A DNA stretch of 20,000 bases from Chiloscyllium plagiosum. Lineage: Eukaryota. Both the position numbers and the translations under genes were made by a program. The stretch spans positions 49,723,875-49,743,874 of the forward strand of contig NC_057719.1 in assembly GCF_004010195.1 (NCBI RefSeq), read 5' to 3'. The notes beneath the pieces were generated by a model. The model made no database searches, had not been told where the DNA came from, and saw only the letters and a program-made list of their open reading frames with translations. Shown here one piece after another: positions 947-19,636 of this stretch; the first letter of the stretch is position 1, and every line of letters begins with the position of its first letter.

Positions 947-1970
947 TAATGAATCTAGAATCTGAAGAAAACACACCTCAGAGGAGTATTTTCAATCTTT
1001 ATACATTAGGTGAGGAACTTCACTCTCAGAGAACACATAACATAAATTTGACATTGGATTTACATGACTTCCAACTATTAATTTAAACCTTTAGAGAGTC
1101 ATGCACAGCAAATCTTTGAGATGCACATTTGACAGAAGAAAACAACTTGCAAGTATTCAATGCAAAATCAGAAAGTCATTCATTTGTTATAAAAGTAATG
1201 ATTAAACACATCTTTTAAACAGGAAACTATCAAACACTAGAAAACCAAATCATCACTTAGAAGATTAAAAACCTCACCTACCTAAAGTGCAAATTAAACA
1301 ATGAAACTGACATATTAAACTATGTACTGCAGCACCAATGTTGTTAGTTCAGTGCATTTTATAATCCATCTATTTTAAGAGACCCTATTCCATGTTGGCA
1401 AGTGATATTAATGAGGAAGCTGGTGAAAAATCTTTGTAGATTCAGCATGAGACTACTTACAAGATTACATTAACATAAGAGAGCTAATGAGACTCTTGCA
1501 TGCTCCAAAATAAAGCTTTTTATAAACCGAAAATGACTTTTGCCAATCTGGCACTGAAAGCAAAATTCAGAAAGTGCATTCTCTGAATTCACAGAATACA
1601 TTCCTACTGGAGCCACGTCAGAGCATAAATCTCGAATATCATTACCAATCTCTTCTCACCTATCCAAAACATCATCATCCACTTTTTATAGATGCTTGCT
1701 GACCTGTTCTGAGCACTTTCTTAGAATTCCAGATTTATCGTACTTTACCATAATTTACTGCCCAAGTGACCAAGAGATGCTACACCATGTCCAAGTGTAT
1801 TGCTTTTGTAATTTCAAATATAATTTAATGACATTCCTCGTCTCTTCATTCCTTCCTTTTTATGCTTTTCTTTGCCTCTAAACAACTTCACGCAGAACCA
1901 CCTCACAACCACCTTCGTGCTTTCAGTTGTGAAATGGAATATAAAACTATGGACTTAATAAGACAAACAA

Positions 1971-2044
1971 TGGCCTAGTGGTATTATCGCCAGATTATTA
2001 ATTCTAAAACCCGGATAATGTTCTGGAGACCCAGATTTGAATCC
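1971..2044 (+). promoter_or_regulatory. tRNA-type (Pol III type 2) internal promoter remnant in the LINE leader
   Basis: A box TGGCCTAGTGG (1971-1981) and B-box-like AGATTTGAATCC (2033-2044). The homologous position in the copy at 11476 reads GGTTCAAATCC (11548-11558), a good B box. Confidence 0.6.
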
Positions 2045-3055
2045 TGTGATCACAGATGGTGAAATTTTAATTCCAGAAATAATTGAAACCAACCGTGAAA
2101 CTTCTGACAATTGTCAGGTAAACCCATCTGGCTCACTATAATGTCCTTCAGGGAAGGAAATCTGTCATCCTCATCTGGTCTGGCCTACATGTGACTCCAG
2201 ATCTACAGCAATGTGGTAGATTCTGAACTGCCCTCTGAAATGGATTAGCAAGGCTGACCCAGCTAGTCACTCAATTGTATGAATCGCTAGGAAGTCTTAA
2301 AAAAGAAATGAAACTGGACTGATCACATGGCAACAACCTAGATACTGGAAGTAATATTGGCAAAAATAGCCCTGTCAACCCTGAAAAGTCCACTTTACTA
2401 ACATCTGGGGACTCGTGCCAAATTGGAAGTGCTATCTCACAGACTAGTCAAGCAACAGCCTAACACAGTCCTACTCGGAATGATACCTTACAGCAATGTC
2501 CCAGATACCATCATCACTATCCCTGAATATGTTCTATCCTATGGACAGGACAGAACCAGCAGAGGTGGTAGCACAGTGGTACACAGACAGGAGGGAGTTG
2601 TACTGGGAGTTCCTCAACATTGACTCCAGACACCATGCAGTCTTGTGGTTTCAAGTTAAACATGCTCAAGTACCCTCCAGCTGATTACTACATACCATCT
2701 TCCCTTGGATGACGAATCGGTACTCCTCCATGGTGAACAATACTTGGTAGAAGCATTGAGTGTGGCAAAGGAACACAATGTACTCTGGGGTGGGGTTTTT
2801 AATGTCTCCCACCAAGACTGGCTTGGCAGCAGCAACACTGATAAAGCTGGTTGGATCCTAAAGGACGTAACTGCTAGACTAGATCTGCGGCAGGGGCTAA
2901 AGAAACCAACAAGAGGGAAAACCATACTTGACCTCCTCCTCACCATTTTCCTTGCCGCAGGTGTCAGTATCAGTAACAGGGACTACTAGGGAGACAAAGT
3001 CCTGCCTTCACATTGAGAATACCTTACAGTACACTGTGTGGCAGGATCACCTTGA

Positions 3056-3188
3056 TCACTAGGGGAATCAAGGGTTTCAGGGAAAGGACAGAAAAATGGA
3101 TGAAAGGAGTATCAGATCAGGGAGGATCGTATTACATGGTGGAGCAGGATTAAGAGTTGATTATTCCTATTCGTTATGGATCTTATAG
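3056..3188 (+). mobile_element. Short CR1 3'-end fragment nested in the LINE
   Basis: ggaatcaagggtttcagggaaaggacag...atcagatcag...atggtggagcagg...ttatggatcttat resembles elasmobranch CR1 3'UTR ends and interrupts the LINE coding sequence. Confidence 0.6.
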
Positions 3189-3811
3189 TTAAAATGGAAC
3201 AGACTTAGGAAAGATCCAACAAAAGAATAAACTAGGCATTTACGAGGTACTTTCAGCCATCAACAGCACAGAACTGTACTCCAGTACATTCTGTAACTTC
3301 ATGACCCAGCATATCCCCAACTCAACCATTACCATCAAGCCAGGGGATATACCCTGGTTCAATGGAGAGTGCAGGAAGGCATATCAAGATCAGTACCAGT
3401 CGTACCTAAAAATTAGGTGTCAACCTGGTGAAGCTACTAAACATGACTGCTTGCATGCCAATTAACATAAGCAGCAAGTGATTGACAGAGCTAAGCAATC
3501 CTACAGCCAACGGATCAGATCTAAGCTCTGCAATACTGACACCTCCAACAGTGAATGACAGTGGACAATAAAACAACTCACTAGAGAGGAAGGCTCTACA
3601 AATATCCCCATCCTCAATCACGGGGGAGCCCAGCTCTTCAGTCAAAAGATAAGGCTGAAGCTTTCGCAGAAACTTCAGCCAGAAGTGCTGAGTGGATGAT
3701 CCAACTCAGACTCAGACTCAGTCTCCAGCATCATAGATACCTGTATCCAATCAATTCGATTCACTCCAACTAATATCAGGGAACAATTGGAGGCACTGGA
3801 TACTGTAAAAG

Positions 3812-3868
3812 TGTTAGGGAATAAATCTTGTGCCATATAATTTATGACAAAATCATTGGGACCCAACA
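3812..3868. mobile_element. 57-bp TG...CA insertion with a 4-bp AAAG duplication (possible minimal LTR remnant)
   Basis: Interrupts the LINE motif DT(A)K|AMGPDNIP. Begins TGTTAGGG, ends CCCAACA; AAAG at 3808-3811 and 3869-3872. Confidence 0.45.
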
Positions 3869-6800
3869 AAAGGCTATGGGCCCTGACAACATTCCAGTGA
3901 AAGTACTGAAGGTTTGTGCTCCAGAACTTGCCACTAGCAAAACTGTTCCAGTACAATTACAACACTGACATCTGCCTGACAATGTGGAAAATTGCTCAGG
4001 CATATCTTATAAAATAAGAACTGGTCAAATCCAAATAGGCCAATTACTAGCCTATCATTCTCCTCTTGATCATCAGTAAAGTGATGCATGGTGTCATCAA
4101 TAGTGCTATCAAGCAGCAACTGCTCAGCAATAACCTGCTCAGTGACGTCCAGTTTGAGTTCCAGCACGGCCACTCAGCTCCTAACCTCATTCCAGTCTAG
4201 GTTCAAAAGTGGACAAAAAAGCTGAATTCCAGAGGGTGATCAAGTGTGGCATCAGAAGTCCGAGCACAATCGGAATCAATGGGTATCAAAGGGGCTAACT
4301 CTGATGATTGGAGTCATACCTGACACATAGGAAGCTGATTGTGATTACTGGAGGTCAGTCGTCTAGCTCCAGCGCACCTCTGCAAGAGTTCCTCAGGGCC
4401 ATGTCCTAGGCCCAACCACCTTCATCTCCTTCATCAATGACTTTCCCTCCATGATAAGGTCAGAAGTAGAGATCTTTGTTGACAATGCTTGGCACCATTC
4501 ACAACTCCTCAACTATTGAAGCAGTCCATGTTCAAGTGCAACAAGATGGGGACAATATCCAGGCTTGGCTGATAAGCAGCAAGTAACATTTTCATTACAC
4601 AAATGCCATGTAAAGACGTATTCCAACAAGAGACAATCTAGCCATTATCCCTTGACATTCAATGGAGTTACTATCATTGAAACCTGCAATATCTACATCC
4701 TGGTGTTACCAATAACCAGAAATTCAGCTGGACTCATCATATAAATACAATGTCTACAAGAGCAAGCCAGAGGTTAGAAATACTCCAACAAGTAACTTAC
4801 TGTCCGACTCCGCAGAGGTTGTCCACCATCTACAAGGCACAAATCAAGAGTATGATATAAAACTGCCCACTTGTCTGGATGGATGCAGTTCCAACAACAT
4901 TCAAGAAGCTGGATATCATCCAGAACAAAGCAGTCAACTTAATTGTTTCTGGATGTGGTGCCATTCATTCCGTCCACCACCAATGACGCACAGTAACAGC
5001 AGTGTGTACTACCTACAAGATGCACTGTAAAAATTCACCAAAGATCATTTGACAGCACCTTCCAAATCCACAACCACTTCCATTTAGAAAGACAAGGGTA
5101 ACAAATACCTCAGAACACAAACATCTGCATGTTCCCCTCCAAGCCACTTACTATCCTGACTTGGAAATATATCCCTTTTTCTTCACTGTCACTGGTACAA
5201 AATCTGGAATGCCTTCCTAATGACATTGTGGGTCTACCTACAGCTTATAGATTGCAACAGTTCAAGAAGATACCTCACCACCACCTTCTCAAGGGCAGCT
5301 AGGGATGGGTAATAAATGCTGGTCCAACCAGCAATGCTTATATCCCATGAATGAATAAGAAAAAGGTATTTTAAATTAGCAGTGCACACATGTATCGCAC
5401 AACTATTTCTTTGAGATTATATTTTAGAAATTTCAGGCAAGTTTTGGTACTGTTGTGATATCATTTGACCAAATCACTCATTTCCAAGTTTTGCTGATGG
5501 CTCTGCATTTTCAGAAATGTTTCTGTGAAGATGTGATATTATTGCGAAAATGCAGTGAATAAAATTAATATGCAGTTTCCACAACGTTCCGCTTACGAAA
5601 GCTGCAAGAAATATTTTCAGTTTTAAGCAATATTCATATAGATGGTATGCAACAGCAGCAGTATGAAATTTCAAGTAAATGAGCTGCAATTTGTGATCCC
5701 TGCACTGATATTCACTGGAGTTATTTATAAATGCCATATTCCAGCATGTAGCAATGTTCTTTAGAAATGGAAACCTAGAGAGACACACCAAAATATCAGA
5801 TGTTTCAGAGACAGTGTGAACAAATCTCTAGTGACTCATGAGTAATAATAAAGCTATATTGAGTGATTGACTAAGATCTTTTCCAGATATCCGTAATATG
5901 TGATTTCGAGTTTCCATTGACTGATTAAGCAACCGTTTCTAAATATTGTTCATATCACTATGCAACACTGGATATGCTATTTCTATATTTATTGTTAATT
6001 GGCATGCTTGCCTAACTTCAAAGCATGGTAGTTTAGCAGGCTAATCGACAGGGAAGAAATATTTTGAGGTGGTAAATATATTTTTATCATGTTTACTGAT
6101 TATTCACATTTTGCAGCTAGCATCAATAACCATCTGTAAATGCTTCTTCCAAAGGCACTGCAACCAATTGCAATATTCTGAATTAACCTGCTGTAAAAAT
6201 TACTATTGTCCAATCGAAAACCCAGCTATGACATTGACAACAAGCATGCAGGCTCATTTCCACTTTGACATAAAGTTATGCAATATGTCTACAGTGCTCC
6301 CCCAAAATCACTGCAGGGATGTGCAAATGAAACGCGCGCACACAGCAGCACCCTGATGCTGGAAGGCTGAAAATCAGCTGGCGTCTGTCTGATTATGCCG
6401 GTTGGTGAAGAAAGCTAACTTGAGAAGTTAACCAACAATGGCCCACTGTAATTTTATGAGGCATGGAAAAACTCTCTTGTTCTTTCTGGCCACTGCAAAA
6501 CTCACTCCCAAAACAATTCCCAGCATTTTTGGAGCATTCTCCAGCATACCCTTGAAGGATAACTGATTGGCACAATGAATGCCTAGTACAGCTGATCCTC
6601 GTGTGCACAATGGATGCTCTACCTTTTTATACATGAAAATAGCAATCAGGATCCAACGCCTGACAGGAGACTCTAATGTGAATATTCATCTGCTTCTTAC
6701 TAGTTATGGATGGTACTGCAAGGAGACCACATAAAGACCAACATAAAAATTAATTCAGGTCAGTCTTGGATAACAAAAGGTTGTCCAGATGTTCCTACCC

Positions 6801-7240
6801 AATCTTTGACTCCCATTTGTCTGATTTCAGACAAGAAACAAGATAGAAAGGCAGTTGAAAATCACCCCCAATATGTTCAGGTGATGTTTTTAAATCTATT
6901 ATTTTATTCTATTATCAGTGTTCATCAATTCTTAATGTATTTATATAATGTATTTATTTAAATAACTAAATTACATAAAGAGAAATTTCATGGGATCATG
7001 CTCCTGTATTAATTGCTAATAACAAACTGTACATCATCCAGAGTGCTAAAAAGACGAAGTATTGCTCATCTATTATTGGGATGTTCAGTAAGAATTCTCC
7101 TGTGCAGAAAAAGCTGGCTTCTTCTTCACTCATCATGTTGAAAACTTCTCTGACCTTTCATTCACTCCGATCAGTATTTTTGCTAACAAGAGATTCACCT
7201 TGCAGCGTACATGTCCTTATCTTAAGCCAAGTGATTCATA

Positions 7241-7652
7241 ACATGGCGGATGGTGAAATTTGAATTTTATGAACATCTGAAATAAAAGCTTTGCCTTTCG
7301 AGAAGGCAATCTGCTACCCTTACCTGGTCTGGCCTACATATGACTCCAGCAAAGTGGTTGACTCTAAACTGCCCTTTGGGCCAGGCAATAAACATTAACC
7401 TAGCCAACTTGCCATAGTCTTACCAGACCATCAGGCTCTAATTACAGAGAGACAACTGGGGGTGATTAAACCTGAAGGCCACCACACCTCAAGCAAGGGC
7501 AGAGGTTGAGAAGGAAAGCCTTTCATAATAACCTCAGCTAGTGCAGGGATTGAACCCACCGTGTTAGCACAGCACACTGCCTCAGAAGCCAACATCCAGC
7601 CAACTAAGCTAAACTAGCCATATGCTTTCAGCTGTGAACAAATAATAAAAAA
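7241..7652 (+). mobile_element. SINE-A copy (5'-eroded), tail interrupted by SINE-B
   Basis: catggcggatggtgaaatttgaatt...ccttacctggtctggcctacatatgactccag...gtggttgactctaaactgccct matches 2054-2236 and 11560-11770. The A-rich tail resumes after 7620. Confidence 0.75.
7408..7619 (-). mobile_element. tRNA-derived SINE of a second family ('SINE-B')
   Basis: Minus strand starts GGCTAGTTTAGCTTAGTTGG (A box), has GGTTCAATCCC (B box) and ends GGTCTGGTAAGACTATGGC. Candidate TSD CTAGCCA at 7400-7406 and 7614-7620. Confidence 0.75.
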
Positions 7653-8419: not shown

Positions 8420-10563
8420 AGCTGAGTGATAGTCAACTCTGTGGGACTTGACTGGTCAGGATCTGCTGAGGTGCATGACAGTAGCATGTGCAAATCCACG
8501 AGGAAAGATATCATCACCCTCATCTACAAGCGGAAGGGGAGAGGGAGGAAATTAGAAATTGGCGACCAATTTCACTGCTGAATGCAGATAAAAAGTTCTG
8601 TCTAACATTATCGCCAACTGGATCAGGTCTGCTCTGTGATTTAACCTGACCAACCTTTATTGTACTGGGCCTCATGCTCCTCAGGGATATGATCGCCTAC
8701 ACACAGGACAGGAGGTCTGGACACCTGGCTCATCAGCCTAGACCAGGAGAAGGCCTTCGTGCTCTCCAAAATAGGCTTTTGGGAGGGAATCCACAATTGG
8801 ATCCAACTGCTTCGCCCTACACCAACATTGTTGGTGCAGTCTCAATTAACAGAGAGATGTGGAGGTGGGGGGCGGGGGAAGGTATCAGAAAGATCCTGGC
8901 CAGATCTGAAGTCAGGCTATCCACTCTCTCCACCTTGTTTATCTAGAGCCTTTTGTCAAGTCCATCAGGAAGTCCATCAGTGAGCCTCAGAGGGGTGACA
9001 ATTCCATGTCGTGGAGGTCTGCACGTCAAAGCCTCCCGATACATGGATGACATCACCGTTTTCTGCTTGGATCTGCTGTCAGTGCATAGATTCATGAGGA
9101 TCTGTGACCAGTTCGAACCAAGATAAATCAAGGCAAAAGAGACGCCATGTTCTTTGGGAACTGGGCTCACCAATCCTTTATCCCCTTCACCATCAGGACA
9201 GATTACCTGGAAATATGGTTCAGAGGGACAGGGTGTGTGCAAAAACTTAGGAGGAGCATATCATCTAGGTAAGGCAGCAACTGCTCTTTTGGGAGCACCA
9301 CTTCCTCTCTGTTGTGGATAAAAACCTGGTCATCAGGTGTGAGGTATTCTCTGTTGTTGTATGTGGTGCAGGTCTGGCCTATCCCCCGAACCTGTGCCAT
9401 TGCAGTCACCTGAACCATCTTCCATTTCACCTGGAGGTCTAGGATGGACCGTGACCTCAGGGACACCATGTACAAAACTCTGGATAGGGGCAGGGTAAGA
9501 ATGCAACCAATGCTGCCCTCATCCTGTTGACCACCTTTGTGTGTGGCTGCATCTAGTTGTGCATAGACCTTCGGTACACAAAGACCGAGTGTCACTATGT
9601 ACTGAGGTTCTACCTGTCCCCAGTGTTGCGAAGGATGGCCTCTGGAACACTGCAAGTTGTTGGACCATTTTGTATCAACTGTCCATCACATGGAATTTTT
9701 CAAGGATAAACATCTTTGACCACAAGTACATCAGGAAGTGGTCAACATGTCACATCCTCGATTCTCTGCGGGAAAAGGAGAGGATGGATTCTGAGCAGAC
9801 TGTCAAAGTCATTTGGCAGAATGCTTCATCACCAGAACTTTCCAACAAGCACCAAGTCATTGCTTGGCAGGAGGTGAGAATGGAGACCTGTGAGATCATT
9901 CATGCATGCCTGGTCTCTCTGTGCCACTGCATGCTGCCTTCGAAGTGGCTGTGGGCAGGTAGAGATGATGACACATCTCCTTCAGGAATGTGCCTTTGCA
10001 AAGGAAGCCTGGAGACAGATGCAGTGGTTTTTGTCAAAGTTCGTCCCAAGCAGCTCCGTGATGCAGGACTCCATGCTCTACAGTCCGTTTGCCAGGACAC
10101 ATACATAGACAAACATTGATTGCATTGGGAGGACCATTAACTCGGTGAAAGATACTCTTTGGTCTGCCTGAAACTTGTTGGTCTTTCAGAGCAAGGAGTT
10201 GACCTTGACTGAGTGCTGCAGATTGGCACATGCTAAGGTCCAGGACTATGTCCTGAGGGACAGATTCAAACTTGGGACAGTTGCCGTCAAGGTGCAGTGG
10301 GAAAAGACCACCATCTAAGGTCTTTCTGCCAAAGTTAAATGGGGATCTGTTCAGTTATCGGACCCGCCTAGTGCCTCAACATATGTAAATATAGTCTTGC
10401 ATAAGTAAGAAATGCCCTTGGTTTGTTTGCTCGTTAGAGTCAAATTTCAATATATGTTGGTTTCCTCATATACTACTGTGCAGAACTGAACTGCTTCAAT
10501 GACTATGTATGTATATTAAAGATATTTTTACAAATAAAGTATATTTTTGCAAGTAAAAAATAA
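8420..10563 (+). mobile_element. 5'-truncated, decayed Tx1/L1-clade LINE (RT, C-terminal Cys/His knuckle, 3'UTR, poly(A) signal)
   Basis: IITLIYKRKG, NWRPISLLN (8557-8583), SLDQEKAF, YMDDITVF (from 9040), C-terminal CLRSGCG...THLLQECAFAKEAW. Stop ~10316-10318, AATAAA 10533-10538, A-rich tail. Flanking near-duplication ATTCAAGTTAATTCC (8405-8419) / ATACAAGCTAATTCC (10564-10578). Confidence 0.9.
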
Positions 10564-10958: not shown

Positions 10959-11147
10959 GGATTGTGAATTGCTTGAATTTGATGTTCCTGTGAGCCAGAG
11001 ATAAATATTTATGCAGTTTATACTTAAATCCAAAGGACATCCAAATACACAATGAAAATGTAATTTCTATAATTATTGAAGATGTACAATTCCCCAAATG
11101 TAAATACATAATCATTTTTATTCAAACCTTTTGTCAAACTGTACCAA

Positions 11148-11884
11148 ACTGTGGCTCAGTTGAAAATACTCTCACCTCTGAGTCATAAGGTCCCATTTGG
11201 AGACTTGAAACGCTGCTCTATTCAAAGTGTCAACCTTCAAATAAGATGTTAAACGGAGGACTTTCTGTCCTCGCAAGTGAATGCAAAAAAATCTTAGTGT
11301 TATTTTGAAAAGAGCAGGTGAATTATCACTGGTCTCTGGGCCAATACTTATCTGTCAGTCAACATTACAAAATAAATCATCTGGTTTACAGGAACTGAGC
11401 ATTGGCATTTCTTGCAATACTTTGATGCCTTCACTTTTAAAGTACTTCATCAGTTGCAAAATGTTTGGGATGTCAGGAGAGGTGATGGTCGAGTGATATT
11501 ATTGCTGGACTATTAATCTAGACACCCAGATAACGTTCTGCGGACCAGGTTCAAATCCTGCCATGGCAGATGGTAGCATTTGAGTTCAAAGAAAAGAAAA
11601 TCTGGAAGTAAGAGTCTAATGATGACCGTGAACCCATTGTCGAATGTTCAGGGAAAAACCCATTTGGCTCACTAACGATCATCAGGGAAGGAAACTGCCA
11701 TCCTTACCTGGTCTGGCCTACTTGTGACTCCAGACCCACAGCAATGTGGTTGACTCTTAATTGCTGTCTGGGTAATTAGGCATGGGTATTAAATGCTGCC
11801 TTGTCAGTGATGCCCTCATCCCATGAATGAATTAACAAAATCTGGTCACCAGGCAAGGTGCTATATAAATGCAGGAGCTTTTTA
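11148..11884 (+). mobile_element. Old Deu-domain SINE (SacSINE1/AmnSINE1-like), split by SINE-A
   Basis: Head gtggctcagt...ctctcacctctgagtca (B box deleted); Deu-like core gatgttaaacggagg...gaaaagagcagg...ggccaatacttat; 3' part aagtacttcat...tttgggatgtc | ...aaggtgctatataaatgca. Recognised from recalled consensus. Confidence 0.7.
11476..11840 (+). mobile_element. Complete SINE-A copy (tRNA head, body, LINE-shared tail)
   Basis: A-box-like TGGTCGAGTGA 11486-11496, B box GGTTCAAATCC 11548-11558, body gggaaggaaactgccatccttacctggtctggcctac..., tail ...catcccatgaatgaattaacaaaa. Confidence 0.85.
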
Positions 11885-12231
11885 TGATCTATTAAAGATG
11901 AAATTCAAGATCAATTTGAAGATTAAATGCTTTTTCAAGAAATTTGTGAAGGTTCATTTCGATATGTATAGCCACACACTCGTCAAATCATAAGTTTAAG
12001 GTTTTTCCAAAACGGACCTCATTGTAATAGTTGGGACAGGCTGCTCCATGTACTCAGGTGCCATGCCTTCATAGCAGTTCATGGTTTTCAATCCATCTGG
12101 TTTGGATACCTATCTGACTGGTTCTCACTCTGGTATGAGGCAGAATGGTGTGGTTAACTTGAAGCAATATTCTTGCTCCTGGTGACGGTGCATTGAGGTA
12201 GTTTTATGTTAAAGCTTATCTATTGCTGAAG

Positions 12232-12886
12232 GAAAACAATAGCTTAGTGGTATTATTGTTAGATTACTAACCTAGAAACCCAGGTAATGCTCCGGGGATC
12301 CGGGTTTCAATCACACTTGAATTTAATATCAAATCTGGAATTTAAGAATCTAATTATGACCATGAAACAATTGTCAGTTATTGGAAAAAAACTGATCTGG
12401 TTCACTCCTGTCCTTTAGATTAGATTAGATTAATTACAGTGTGGAAACAGGCCTTTCGGCCCATCAAGTCCACACTGACCCTCCAAAGAGCAACCCACCC
12501 AGACCCATTCCCCTACACCTAACACTACGGGCAATTTAGCATGGCCAATTCACCTAACCTGCACGTTTTTGGACTGTGGGAGGAAACTGGAGCACCCAGA
12601 AGAAACCCACACAGACACGGGAAGAATGTGCAAACTCCACACAGACAGTTGCCTGAGGCGCGAATTGAACCTGGGTCTCTGGCATTATGAGGCAGCAGTG
12701 CTAACCACTGTGCCGCCCACTTTAAAAAAGGAAATCTGCTGTTCTTACCTGGTCTGGCCTGTGTATGATTCCAAACCCATAGCAATGTAGTTGACACTCA
12801 ACTGCCCTCAGGGATACTAGGGATGGGCAATAAGTGTTGGCCTATCTCTAGCAGCACCCACATCCTGTGAATGAACGAAAAATAAA
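12232..12886 (+). mobile_element. SINE-A copy interrupted by an HE1 SINE
   Basis: A box TAGCTTAGTGG 12240-12250. Body breaks at gtccttta and resumes at 12720 (ctttaaaaaaggaaatctg...). Tail ctagggatgggcaataag...catcctgtgaatgaacgaaaaataaa. Confidence 0.8.
12415..12719 (-). mobile_element. HE1-type (V-SINE) elasmobranch SINE
   Basis: Minus strand: GGCACAGTGGTTAGCACTGCTGCCTCA...GGTTCAATTC (tRNA head), V-core TGTGTGGAGTTTGCACATTCT...GGGTTTC...CAGTTTCCTCCCACAGTCCAAA, CR1-like tail GGGCCGAAAGGCCTGTTTCCACACTGTA plus (TCTAA)n. Short CTTTA duplication at 12413-12417 / 12720-12724. Confidence 0.92.
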
Positions 12887-13091: not shown

Positions 13092-13397
13092 TTAATTTGC
13101 GGGATTGTTAGATAAGGCATAATCTAATACCCATCTCAAACTGCTCAGAGGACAACTAAGACTGTGGGCCTCATATGGGCCAGAGCAAGTCACAATAACA
13201 GTTTTTCTTCCCCAAAGGTTATTAGTGAACCAGAGTTTACCCTTTCTAACAATTGACAGTGGTTACATGGGTTAGCTTTTTATTCCAGATTATTATTGAA
13301 TTTAAATTGCACCATGTTCTATGTTGGGATTGGAACCTACATTCTGGTTACGCTACCTCTGGATTACTAGTCCATTACCATCACACTACTGGCTTCC
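13092..13397 (-). mobile_element. Highly diverged SINE-A-related copy
   Basis: Reverse-oriented remnants: ttcttccccaaaggttattagtgaaccaga, ttccagattattattgaatttaaatt, ctctggattactagtcca; colinear with the minus-strand copy at 15039-15581. Confidence 0.55.
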
Positions 13398-14074: not shown

Positions 14075-14172
14075 TCCACCACCTACAAGGTCCCCTCTGA
14101 GTCACACATCATCCTTACTTGGAAAGATATTGTTGTTCCATCACTGTCACTGGATCAAAATCCGGGAACTCC
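14075..14172 (+). mobile_element. Fragment of the 3' region of the same LINE family as 1968-5364
   Basis: caaggtcccctctgagtcacacatcatccttacttggaaagatatt...tcactgtcactggatcaaaatccgggaact aligns by eye to 5128-5212 (catgttcccctccaagccacttactatcctgacttggaaatatat...tcactgtcactggtacaaaatctggaat). Confidence 0.7.
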
Positions 14173-15038: not shown

Positions 15039-15581
15039 TTTTTAAATTAATTAATGGGATTAGGGGGTTGCTGGCTAGATCATCCCTAATTGCCCAGAGG
15101 GCAGTCAAGAGTCAACCACATTGCTGTGGGTTTGGAGTCACATGTAGGCCAGGGTCAAAGGTCACATGACACCAAGTTATAGTCCAACAGATTTATTTGA
15201 AATCATAAGGTTTAGGAACGCTGCCTGTTAGTCAGGGTCTGACGAAGGAGTAGCAATCTGAAAGCTTGTGATGTCAAATAAACCTGTTGGACTATAACCT
15301 GGTATTGTGTGACTTTTGACCTTGTCTCCCCCAATCTAACACCAGCACATCCACGATATGTAGGCCAGATCAGGTAAAGGAAGGCATATTTCATTCCCTA
15401 AAGGACATTAGTGAACCAAATGGATTTTTCTGGCAATTGTCAATGAATCCGTGAATCATTAGATTCCAAATTCCAGACTCTTATTGAATGCAAATTCCAC
15501 CTTCTGTTGTGGCGGGTCCCCACATTATTTCCTGGGTCTGAATTAACAGTCGTGATAATGCCACTAGGCCACTGCCTCCCC
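15039..15581 (-). mobile_element. SINE-A copy interrupted by a palindromic PLE-derived insertion
   Basis: A box as reverse complement ccactaggcca 15561-15571; body ttccctaaaggacattagtgaacca; body/tail junction catccctaattgcccagagggcagtcaagagtcaaccacattgctgtggg. Confidence 0.85.
15153..15357 (+). mobile_element. Palindromic Penelope-like-element-derived insertion with a degenerate hammerhead core
   Basis: Inverted arms 15153-~15213 and ~15261-15321 (9 mismatches in 61 nt by my count). CTGACGA (15239-15245)...GAAA (15260-15263). Exact 11-bp TSD ATGTAGGCCAG at 15142-15152 and 15358-15368. Confidence 0.75.
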
Positions 15582-18159: not shown

Positions 18160-19636
18160 ATAAAAACTGTGTAAGCTCCTTACAATCAAAAAACAGAGGG
18201 TAGACGTAACAGGAACAAATATGGCAGACCAATTAAATACATACTTTGTTCTGTCTTCATAAAAGGAGGAAAGAATAACATCCCAATGTTTGGGAACACA
18301 GAGTATATTAAGAAATGAAAGGAATGAAAGGAAATCAGTATTTGTAGGGAAATATATTGAGGACAAGGCTGGGTTTAAAGGCTGATAAATCCCCAGGATT
18401 TGATAATCAACACCTCACATTACTTAAGGAAGCCTGTAAGGCCCTAAAAATGGTGAATACATTGATGCCCACCCTTCAAGATGCTACTGACTCCGGAACA
18501 ATTCTTATGGACTGGAGGGTAGCTAATGTAATCCCACCATTTTAGTAAAAAAGGAGGTAGGAAGAAAACAGAGAATTATAGACCAGTGAGTTATAGACCT
18601 ATAGTGAGGAAAATGCTAGAGTCTGTCATAAAAGATTTAATAGCAGAACACTTGAAAAGCAAGCCTCTTCCTGAGTAGCAGGCAGTGACTAGTGTGGTAA
18701 TGCAAAGATCAGTGCTTGGACCTGAGCTATTCACAATATTTTTTTTTAGATTCCATACAGTGTGGAAACAGGCCTTTCGGCCCAACAAGTCCACACCGAC
18801 CCTCTGAAGAGCAACCCACCCAGACCCATTCCCCTACATTTACCCCTGACTGATGCACCTAACACTTAGGGCAATTTAGCATGGCCACTTCACCTAACCT
18901 GCACATCTTTGGACTGTGGGAGGAAACCCACACAGATGCAGGGAGAATGTGCAAACTCCACACAGACAGTTGCCCAAGGCAGGAATTGAACCCAGGTCCC
19001 TGGCACTGTAAGGCAGCAGTGCTAACCACTGAGCCACTGAGGAGAGAATTAAATTTAATCTTAGTTTGCAGATGATGCAAAACTGGGTGGGAAGTGAACT
19101 GTGCAGAGGATACAGAGATGCTTCATTGTGATTTGAACCAATTGAGAAAGTAGACAAATACATGACAGAATAAGTATAATATGAGTAAATGTGAGGTTAT
19201 TCACTTTGGTCGCAAGAACAGGAAGGCAGATTATCTGAATGGGGGCAATCTAATTGGGAAAGAGGAAGGTGCATCAAGACCACAGTGCCCTTGTATACCA
19301 GCTGCTGAAAGTAAGCACACAGGCAGCAAAGGCAGCAAATGGCACATTGGCATTTATAGTGAGAGAATTCAAGTAAAAGAACAGGAATGTCTTGCTGCAA
19401 AAGGTGAGATGATACCTGGAGTATTACATTCAGTTTTGCTCTCCTTATCTAAAGAAAGATGAATTAGCTATGGAGAAGTGCAACAAAGGTCTGCCAGGTT
19501 GATTCCTGGAATGGCAGGACTGACGTATGAAGATAGACTCGATTGCTTAGGACTATATTCATTAGTATTCAGAAGAATGGGGGAGGGGCATCTCATAGAA
19601 ACCTATAAAATTCCAACAGATCAAGACAGGGTAAAA
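18160..19636 (+). mobile_element. Decayed, internally deleted CR1 ORF2 fragment (RT region), interrupted by HE1
   Basis: GLKADKSPGFD, DWRVANVIP, ENYRPVS, VTSVVMQRSVLGPELFTI, FADDAKLGG (~19065), KCEVIHFGRKN, RLIPGMAGLTYEDRLDCLGLYSL. Confidence 0.88.
18739..19039 (-). mobile_element. HE1-type (V-SINE) elasmobranch SINE
   Basis: Highly similar to 12415-12719; head CAGTGGCTCAGTGGTTAGCACTGCTGCC...GGTTCAATTCC. Lacks ~19 nt of the core between two gaaac repeats. Confidence 0.92.

Follow-up and report, generated by a model that had tools for sequence, protein, structure and literature searches.

The window analyzed here, 20,000 nucleotides (nt) of the Chiloscyllium plagiosum genome (NCBI RefSeq assembly GCF_004010195.1, contig NC_057719.1, positions 49,723,875 to 49,743,874 of the forward strand), contains at positions 1961–5364 a dead copy of the shark-and-ray Zenon LINE (long interspersed nuclear element). 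The textbook division holds that LINEs are RNA polymerase II (Pol II) mRNAs, while SINEs (short interspersed nuclear elements) are RNA polymerase III (Pol III) parasites in which a small-RNA head has been added to the ends of a LINE. In the Zenon family, by contrast, the SINE head is carried by the autonomous element itself, across sharks and a ray. The LINE family is known; its tRNA-headed anatomy is undescribed in the literature searched. That this tRNA-headed, autonomous-type LINE is a real family and not a one-off is near certain: its sampled copies share one anatomy, have no ORF1 and no other leader, give majority sequences depleted of T runs on the sense strand, and are accompanied by nested short forms.

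Comparison of the window with itself reveals the relationship between the LINE and the SINEs around it. A SINE at 11485–11770 aligns with the LINE head and body at 1970–2237 with 71.8% identity over 291 columns (E = 1e-31), and its continuation at 11777–11840 aligns with the LINE tail at 5300–5363 with 75% identity (E = 6.5e-4). The local scores of the head against the SINEs at 11476, 12232 and 15039 were 246, 114 and 133, far above the null maxima of 38, 41 and 37 from 100 shuffles; those of the tail were 62, 58 and 41, with null maxima of 31, 29 and 40 (100 shuffles), making the tail match at 15039 marginal. As the earlier note had described, the body is joined straight to the tail in the SINEs, and in the LINE the middle is filled by endonuclease-reverse transcriptase (EN-RT) sequence. 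The EN-RT frame is decayed, with many stops and frameshifts. Its boundaries required correction. The copy starts at about 1961 and not at 1968, so the stretch at 1957–1967, proposed as half of a target site duplication (TSD), overlaps the decayed 5´ end of the element and is not a TSD. The A box reported at 1971 is intact, whereas the B box reported at 2033 is damaged in this copy. Pfam matched PF14529 on the window copy and PF14529, PF03372 and PF00078 on other copies; the window copy is 81% identical to the family majority sequence. The parts of the element are:

1961–2055, plus strand: tRNA-derived head, A box at 1971–1981, damaged B box at about 2033–2043; a tRNA profile matches the family majority, not the window's own head
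2056–2236, plus strand: body of the 1961 element, common to the SINEs and ending at the short-SINE join point, from alignments
2237–2275, plus strand: post-body stretch retained in the mid-length form; 26 nt in the family, with a small insertion in the window copy
2308–2310, plus strand: conserved ATG, 92 nt before the EN TNIWG codon and out of frame with EN-RT
2385–5302, plus strand: decayed single EN and RT frame (Zenon, CR1 group), family stop codon at 5300–5302
3055–3230, no strand assigned: foreign insertion in the window copy, a gap in alignment with other copies
3810–3868, no strand assigned: foreign insertion in the window copy, likewise a gap in alignment with other copies
5293–5364, plus strand: 3´ tail common to the SINEs, beginning in the last codons of the open reading frame (ORF) and ending A-rich, from alignments

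When the junction between SINE body and EN (2100–2500) was used as a query against the same genome, 5340 candidates were returned, and all 40 places scored, which comprise the window itself and 39 others, span the junction with 73–78% identity. Of the 20 copies fetched, 17 run from the head or body as far as window position 5300 or beyond; a strict cut leaves 6 that include both termini. To avoid selecting for the head, a second sample was picked with the endonuclease protein alone. Among the best 30 of 150 scored matches, 14 reach the tRNA head and 22 reach the body (12 and 20 of 28, respectively, after removal of two places already found). The other 16 stop before the head and have no common upstream sequence at their break points, as 5´ truncation predicts. 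No other leader and no ORF1 were found among these 30 copies, and before EN the family majority sequence has no open frame of more than 80 codons except the 5´ extension of the EN frame itself. The observations that the earlier note had named as fatal to its proposal, a junction unique to this locus with another 5´ untranslated region or an ORF1 elsewhere, thus did not materialize. A one-off event, in which a SINE inserted before, or recombined with, a LINE at this locus, has nothing to recommend it beyond the high density of both repeats; with the junction present at 39 of 39 other scored places and in the published consensuses of five species, it is already refuted, and we assign it a negligible probability.

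The family majority sequence, derived from 18 copies, is 3295 nt long with one 934-codon open frame from the EN start, and copies are 79–91% identical to it. No intact copy is present among the 150 scored protein matches, and for this reason the family looks extinct in this genome. The ends of the LINE copies are A-rich, as they are in Zenon elements. TSDs of at least 9 nt were no more frequent than chance, with one among 29 SINEs (null 3.1%) and none among 15 LINEs (null 1.9%). The sampled copies are old, and truncation affects some of the LINE 5´ boundaries. In CR1-group elements TSDs are short or missing.

Zenon elements of the CR1 group have been described in five elasmobranchs; they lack ORF1 and carry a poly-A tail (PMC13343379). 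The same study lists a few copies with intact ORF2 for the ray. A 19-nt motif of the window is exact in 3 Zenon rows of Supplementary Table 2 of that study. By eye, over the first 400 nt of each, the head, body and junction open 7 of 7 elasmobranch consensus rows (Zenon-1 of white shark, CarCar; whale shark, RhiTyp; catshark, ScyCan; and stingray, HypSab; and Zenon-1 to -3 of dogfish, SquAca), and the A and B boxes are kept from sharks to ray; the family studied here is closest to the whale shark consensus. None of the 3 hagfish and coelacanth rows (2 and 1, respectively) starts with the head, and their first 400 nt are rich in T runs. Published elasmobranch consensus lengths are 2886–3314 nt, compared to 3295 nt here. 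Judged by sequence, the element is the published elasmobranch Zenon LINE, which is itself not new: the two share the head, body and junction, a length of ~3.3 kb, one APE-RT frame, no ORF1 and an A-rich tail. They differ in description, as the word "tRNA" occurs 0 times in the accessible text and supplement of PMC13343379, which mention no tRNA-derived 5´ end, partner SINE or Pol III features. The accessible portion of a whale shark preprint names CR1-Zenon only, and no description of a tRNA-headed shark LINE was found in the literature searched, which excluded Repbase, Dfam and most subscription journals.

In a quick RT tree of 46 rows, none a named Zenon reference, the shark RT falls in a 12-row clade of unnamed proteins (SH-aLRT 99), and its RT identity to unnamed single-ORF relatives is 43–49%. 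In the leader of L221, the nearest head-less relative, two motifs (170–220 and 390–450) look by eye like the 5´ ends of hagfish Zenon-2 and coelacanth Zenon-1, with a short stem flanked by conserved sequence; Rfam found nothing on L221. Such a leader may be the structured one that ancestral Zenons had and that was replaced in sharks. Pieces of the Zenon LINE protein also lie inside annotated gene models of three other sharks (P0005, P0014, P0016, P0032 and P0053), where they are probably annotation artefacts or exonised fragments.

The origin of the head was examined with a profile of 14 tRNA genes of this genome, which matches both majority sequences, that of the LINE at 9–92 with E = 6e-6 and that of the SINE with E = 5e-7, but not the window's own head or L221. 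Long-arm Leu types were the best of the 14 tRNAs against the SINE head. Column counts across copies show CpG in the B box decaying both ways, which points to a canonical B box in the master element. ARAGORN found no tRNA in the window, and its relaxed-threshold calls were set aside, as 6 false tRNAs appeared in a control. Rfam found nothing on the window head and, on the element at 5 loci, only unrelated hairpins. A hammerhead-like body motif (CTGATGA..GAAA) was rejected, its key C being lineage-specific (site 145) and its stem I unpaired.

The short form made of head, body and tail is represented four times in the window:

7240–7410, plus strand: partial, decayed copy
11476–11840, plus strand: complete copy
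12227–12885, plus strand: copy interrupted by another tRNA-headed SINE at 12425–12714 (minus strand)
15039–15575, minus strand: copy with an insertion at ~15153–15355

This SINE is 354 nt long, non-coding and dispersed in many copies (8936 candidates, 40 scored); its 3´ tail is shared with the LINE, and in alignments it consists only of the 5´ and 3´ ends of its partner. Among 122 distinct body ends, which count our own loci and are not genome proportions, 56 continue as LINE and 46 lead straight into the tail; 12 retain ~26 nt more (the mid-length form) and 8 are unclassified, the window copy being among the latter and one "LINE" row, L036, being a longer deletion. Rarer copies (L047, L036) join deeper in the ORF. 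Loose ends showing the short join also occur in contigs of organisms B and C; D has a longer join.

Five non-CpG sites separate the short form from the LINE of this genome. At three, compared by eye in the published rows, the short form has the state of white shark, catshark, dogfish and ray, and the LINE shares the other state with the whale shark consensus; at the remaining two (159 and 218) the short form has states of its own. The mid-length form follows the LINE at the five sites by 11:0, 7:1, 10:0, 11:0 and 9:2, and at the three LINE-derived sites its copies (n = 12) show the LINE state 11, 7 and 9 times and the older state 0, 1 and 2 times. As it carries the derived bases of the LINE, the mid-length form was cut from, or recombined with, this LINE lineage. 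The commonest short SINE keeps ancestral bases and so is not a direct deletion of the LINE subfamily in the window; by these sites it is an older sister lineage that split earlier and ran on its own. The earlier suggestion that the SINE derives from the LINE by internal deletion therefore holds for the mid-length form and does not for the commonest short SINE as a direct deletion of this subfamily. Two points weigh against deriving the short forms from this LINE: the short SINE does not fall inside this LINE subfamily, and the mid-length sample is biased, most of it having been found with the window's head as query.

For the commonest SINE the evidence is mixed, as deletion from an older Zenon and donation of a head to Zenon both fit. 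Under the latter, which concerns direction only and is compatible with either polymerase, an ordinary Zenon-tailed SINE came first, its head and body were taken up by the LINE, and the lineage of the donor survives as the short SINE. The states that the SINE has to itself (159 and 218), those that it keeps in common with other elasmobranch Zenon heads at three sites, the sharing of tails that is the norm for SINEs and the need for the tRNA head to have come once from a small RNA all agree with this order. Identical data, however, fit deletion from an older Zenon; the LINE's derived bases recur in the mid-length form, which retains 26 nt of LINE behind the body, and the joins deeper in the ORF (L047, L036) show that deletions happen. 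We consider the SINE-first order credible, if somewhat short of probable.

Pol III stops at runs of four Ts (T4) and at degenerate runs (PMC3141230). On the sense strand of the majority sequence of 18 copies there is no T4, compared to 14 A4, 11 C4 and 9 G4; T3 occurs 8 times versus 42–56 times for the other bases, and six degenerate terminator patterns (of the T3-N-T2 type) are absent. Within the ORF, synonymous shuffling predicts 13.8 T3 and 5 were observed (P = 0.001, z -3.25). A second majority from 29 protein-picked copies has 0 T4 and 5 T3 in 2.6 kb. The depletion of T3 was not seen in an L1/Tx1-like control LINE of the same genome (15 observed, 15.7 expected), and none of 46 other LINE ORFs, namely metagenome LINE ORFs of at least 600 codons among 80 matching loci, lies at z of -3 or below (minimum -2.9). 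L221, the nearest relative with DNA, has 26 T4. The full LINE, with A and B boxes near its 5´ end and neither T4 nor a degenerate terminator on its sense strand, has the sequence arrangement of a Pol III type-2 unit. T4 absence alone says little; the T-run depletion overall is suggestive, as an indirect signal of the kind that Pol III transcription predicts.

Several observations weigh against reading this signal as Pol III transcription. The T4 deficit in the ORF is weak (0 observed, 2.5 expected by synonymous shuffling, P = 0.046). Under an order-1 Markov model, 10% of runs contain no T4 either, and the same is true of 1 among the 46 other LINE ORFs. The shark sense strand is T-poor (20%), and the 46 controls are mostly T-rich single copies with hosts unknown. 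A low phenylalanine content was discarded as a sign of T avoidance, since at 1.8%, versus a mean of 3.7% in 35 matches, it is equaled by three close relatives. RNA reads placed at 80% likeness extend over the full length of the element with one orientation prevailing. They are uninformative: they derive from many copies and form no start or end peak on the element, and one run gave nothing. The lack of ORF1 is also no sign of Pol III because Zenons of all phyla lack it (PMC13343379). Runs of at least four Ts before the A-tail (17 of 67 ends) were rejected as a terminator, as internal A runs change alike in 5 of 69 copies; A-run decay probably explains at least part of them.

The frame itself bears on how such a transcript might be used. 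EN has no ATG of its own. An ATG following an A-rich stretch, 98 or 92 nt upstream of EN in the two main subfamilies, is kept in 45 of 55 copies and is visible by eye in 6 of the 7 published elasmobranch rows. It is out of frame by a common offset (2 mod 3) in 32 of the 55, the rest being split 12 and 11, and the 5´ extension of the EN frame is arginine-rich. Since EN-RT lies in another frame than the conserved ATG, translation would need a -1 shift, re-initiation or a non-AUG start in the EN-frame extension.

We propose that an ancestral elasmobranch Zenon may have swapped its leader for a tRNA or tRNA-SINE 5´ end, most simply via a template switch in reverse transcription. The A and B boxes would then have driven transcription of the whole 3.3 kb, full-length Pol III transcription would have put sense-strand stop signals for Pol III under negative selection, and the Zenon protein would have recognized the shared 3´ tail. 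Since promoter and tail both lie in the LINE ends, one internal deletion could yield a working SINE in a single step. There is about an even chance that the Zenon LINE was transcribed by Pol III, and the combined model, a Zenon with a tRNA/SINE-type 5´ end that was likely Pol III-transcribed and likely gave rise to SINE-like short forms by loss of its middle, we regard as evenly balanced. A bolder version, in which sharks and rays would have harbored an autonomous protein-coding retrotransposon with a 3.3 kb Pol III transcript from a captured tRNA promoter, a cap-free out-of-frame start and SINEs generated by deletion, is possible but falls below an even chance.

The chief competitor of this proposal is that Pol II made the LINE, with the tRNA-SINE head acting as a Pol II leader or remaining passive and the T poverty reflecting either a strand bias ordinary for LINEs or the avoidance of processing signals rich in U. 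LINEs are as a rule Pol II transcripts (PMC5786205), capped RNA is easier to translate, the tail ends in an AATAAA-like sequence in many copies, and the control L1/Tx1-like LINE also has few T4 runs (1 in 1965 nt, P = 0.18). This account does not readily explain a T3 depletion that exceeds codon and dinucleotide expectation and is absent from both the in-genome control and the 46 other ORFs, nor the retention of A and B boxes in consensuses from sharks to ray with no other leader; we judge it a substantial possibility that stops short of being the probable one. Even under Pol II, the family documents a route from LINE to SINE without the addition of a head. If Pol III transcription is correct, Zenon would provide a natural protein-coding Pol III transcript, making cap-independent translation directly testable. 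The link between polymerase and ORF1 would become so as well; in the L1 system, ORF1 is dispensable for Pol III transcripts (PMC2666806). For repeat annotation, the consequence is that in shark genomes SINE libraries will mask LINE copies and vice versa.

We take the Zenon-type short SINE to be none of HE1, SacSINE1 and CmiSINE. Those shark SINEs are likewise tRNA-headed, come from cartilaginous fish and have LINE-like tails, but by description their partners are HER1, CR1-4_DR-like and L2-2_CM elements and their bodies are V, Deu or CORE (PMC5499810, PMC3747384). A similar architecture is seen in the Persaeus SIDEs, which are short, combine the 5´ and 3´ ends of a lepidopteran Zenon LINE and arose more than once; these, however, show no homology to tRNA, 5S or 7SL and lack a Pol III promoter, while the 5´ end of the shark parent is itself tRNA-like (PMC6740152). 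For this reason the shark short form is built like a SINE2, with a head of tRNA origin plus A and B boxes, and its match to the tRNA profile separates it from Persaeus-type SIDEs. RTE and Vingi LINEs have bipartite SINEs (Bov-tA, AfroSINE and CoeSINE4) that also share 5´ and 3´ sequence with their LINE, but there a deleted LINE gained the tRNA head, which the autonomous element lacks; the donors listed in the accessible part of that study do not include CR1-group LINEs (PMC5786205). RTE-1_DAn and elements related to it are LINEs with tRNA-like sequence matching many SINE2 heads, and they differ in belonging to the RTE clade and in that the tRNA-like piece was removed from that analysis (PMC5786205). 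Bivalve SINEs have only their tails in common with Zenon (PMC11481361).

Other repeats surround the element. The 3´ part of an L1/Tx1-like LINE, the source of the T-run control, lies at ~8900–10560 (plus strand), a decayed sequence related to the SINE head and body at 13204–13380 (minus strand), and a fragment of the Zenon 3´ coding region at 14080–14165 (plus strand). The SINE at 11476 was inserted into an older repeat (~11141–11475 and 11845–11880), which we presume to be a Deu-domain SINE like SacSINE1. A second tRNA-headed SINE family, presumably HE1/V-SINE, is present at 12425–12714 and 18746–19038 (both minus strand), with 79% likeness between the copies; as one of them sits inside the Zenon-type SINE at 12227, this family moved later.

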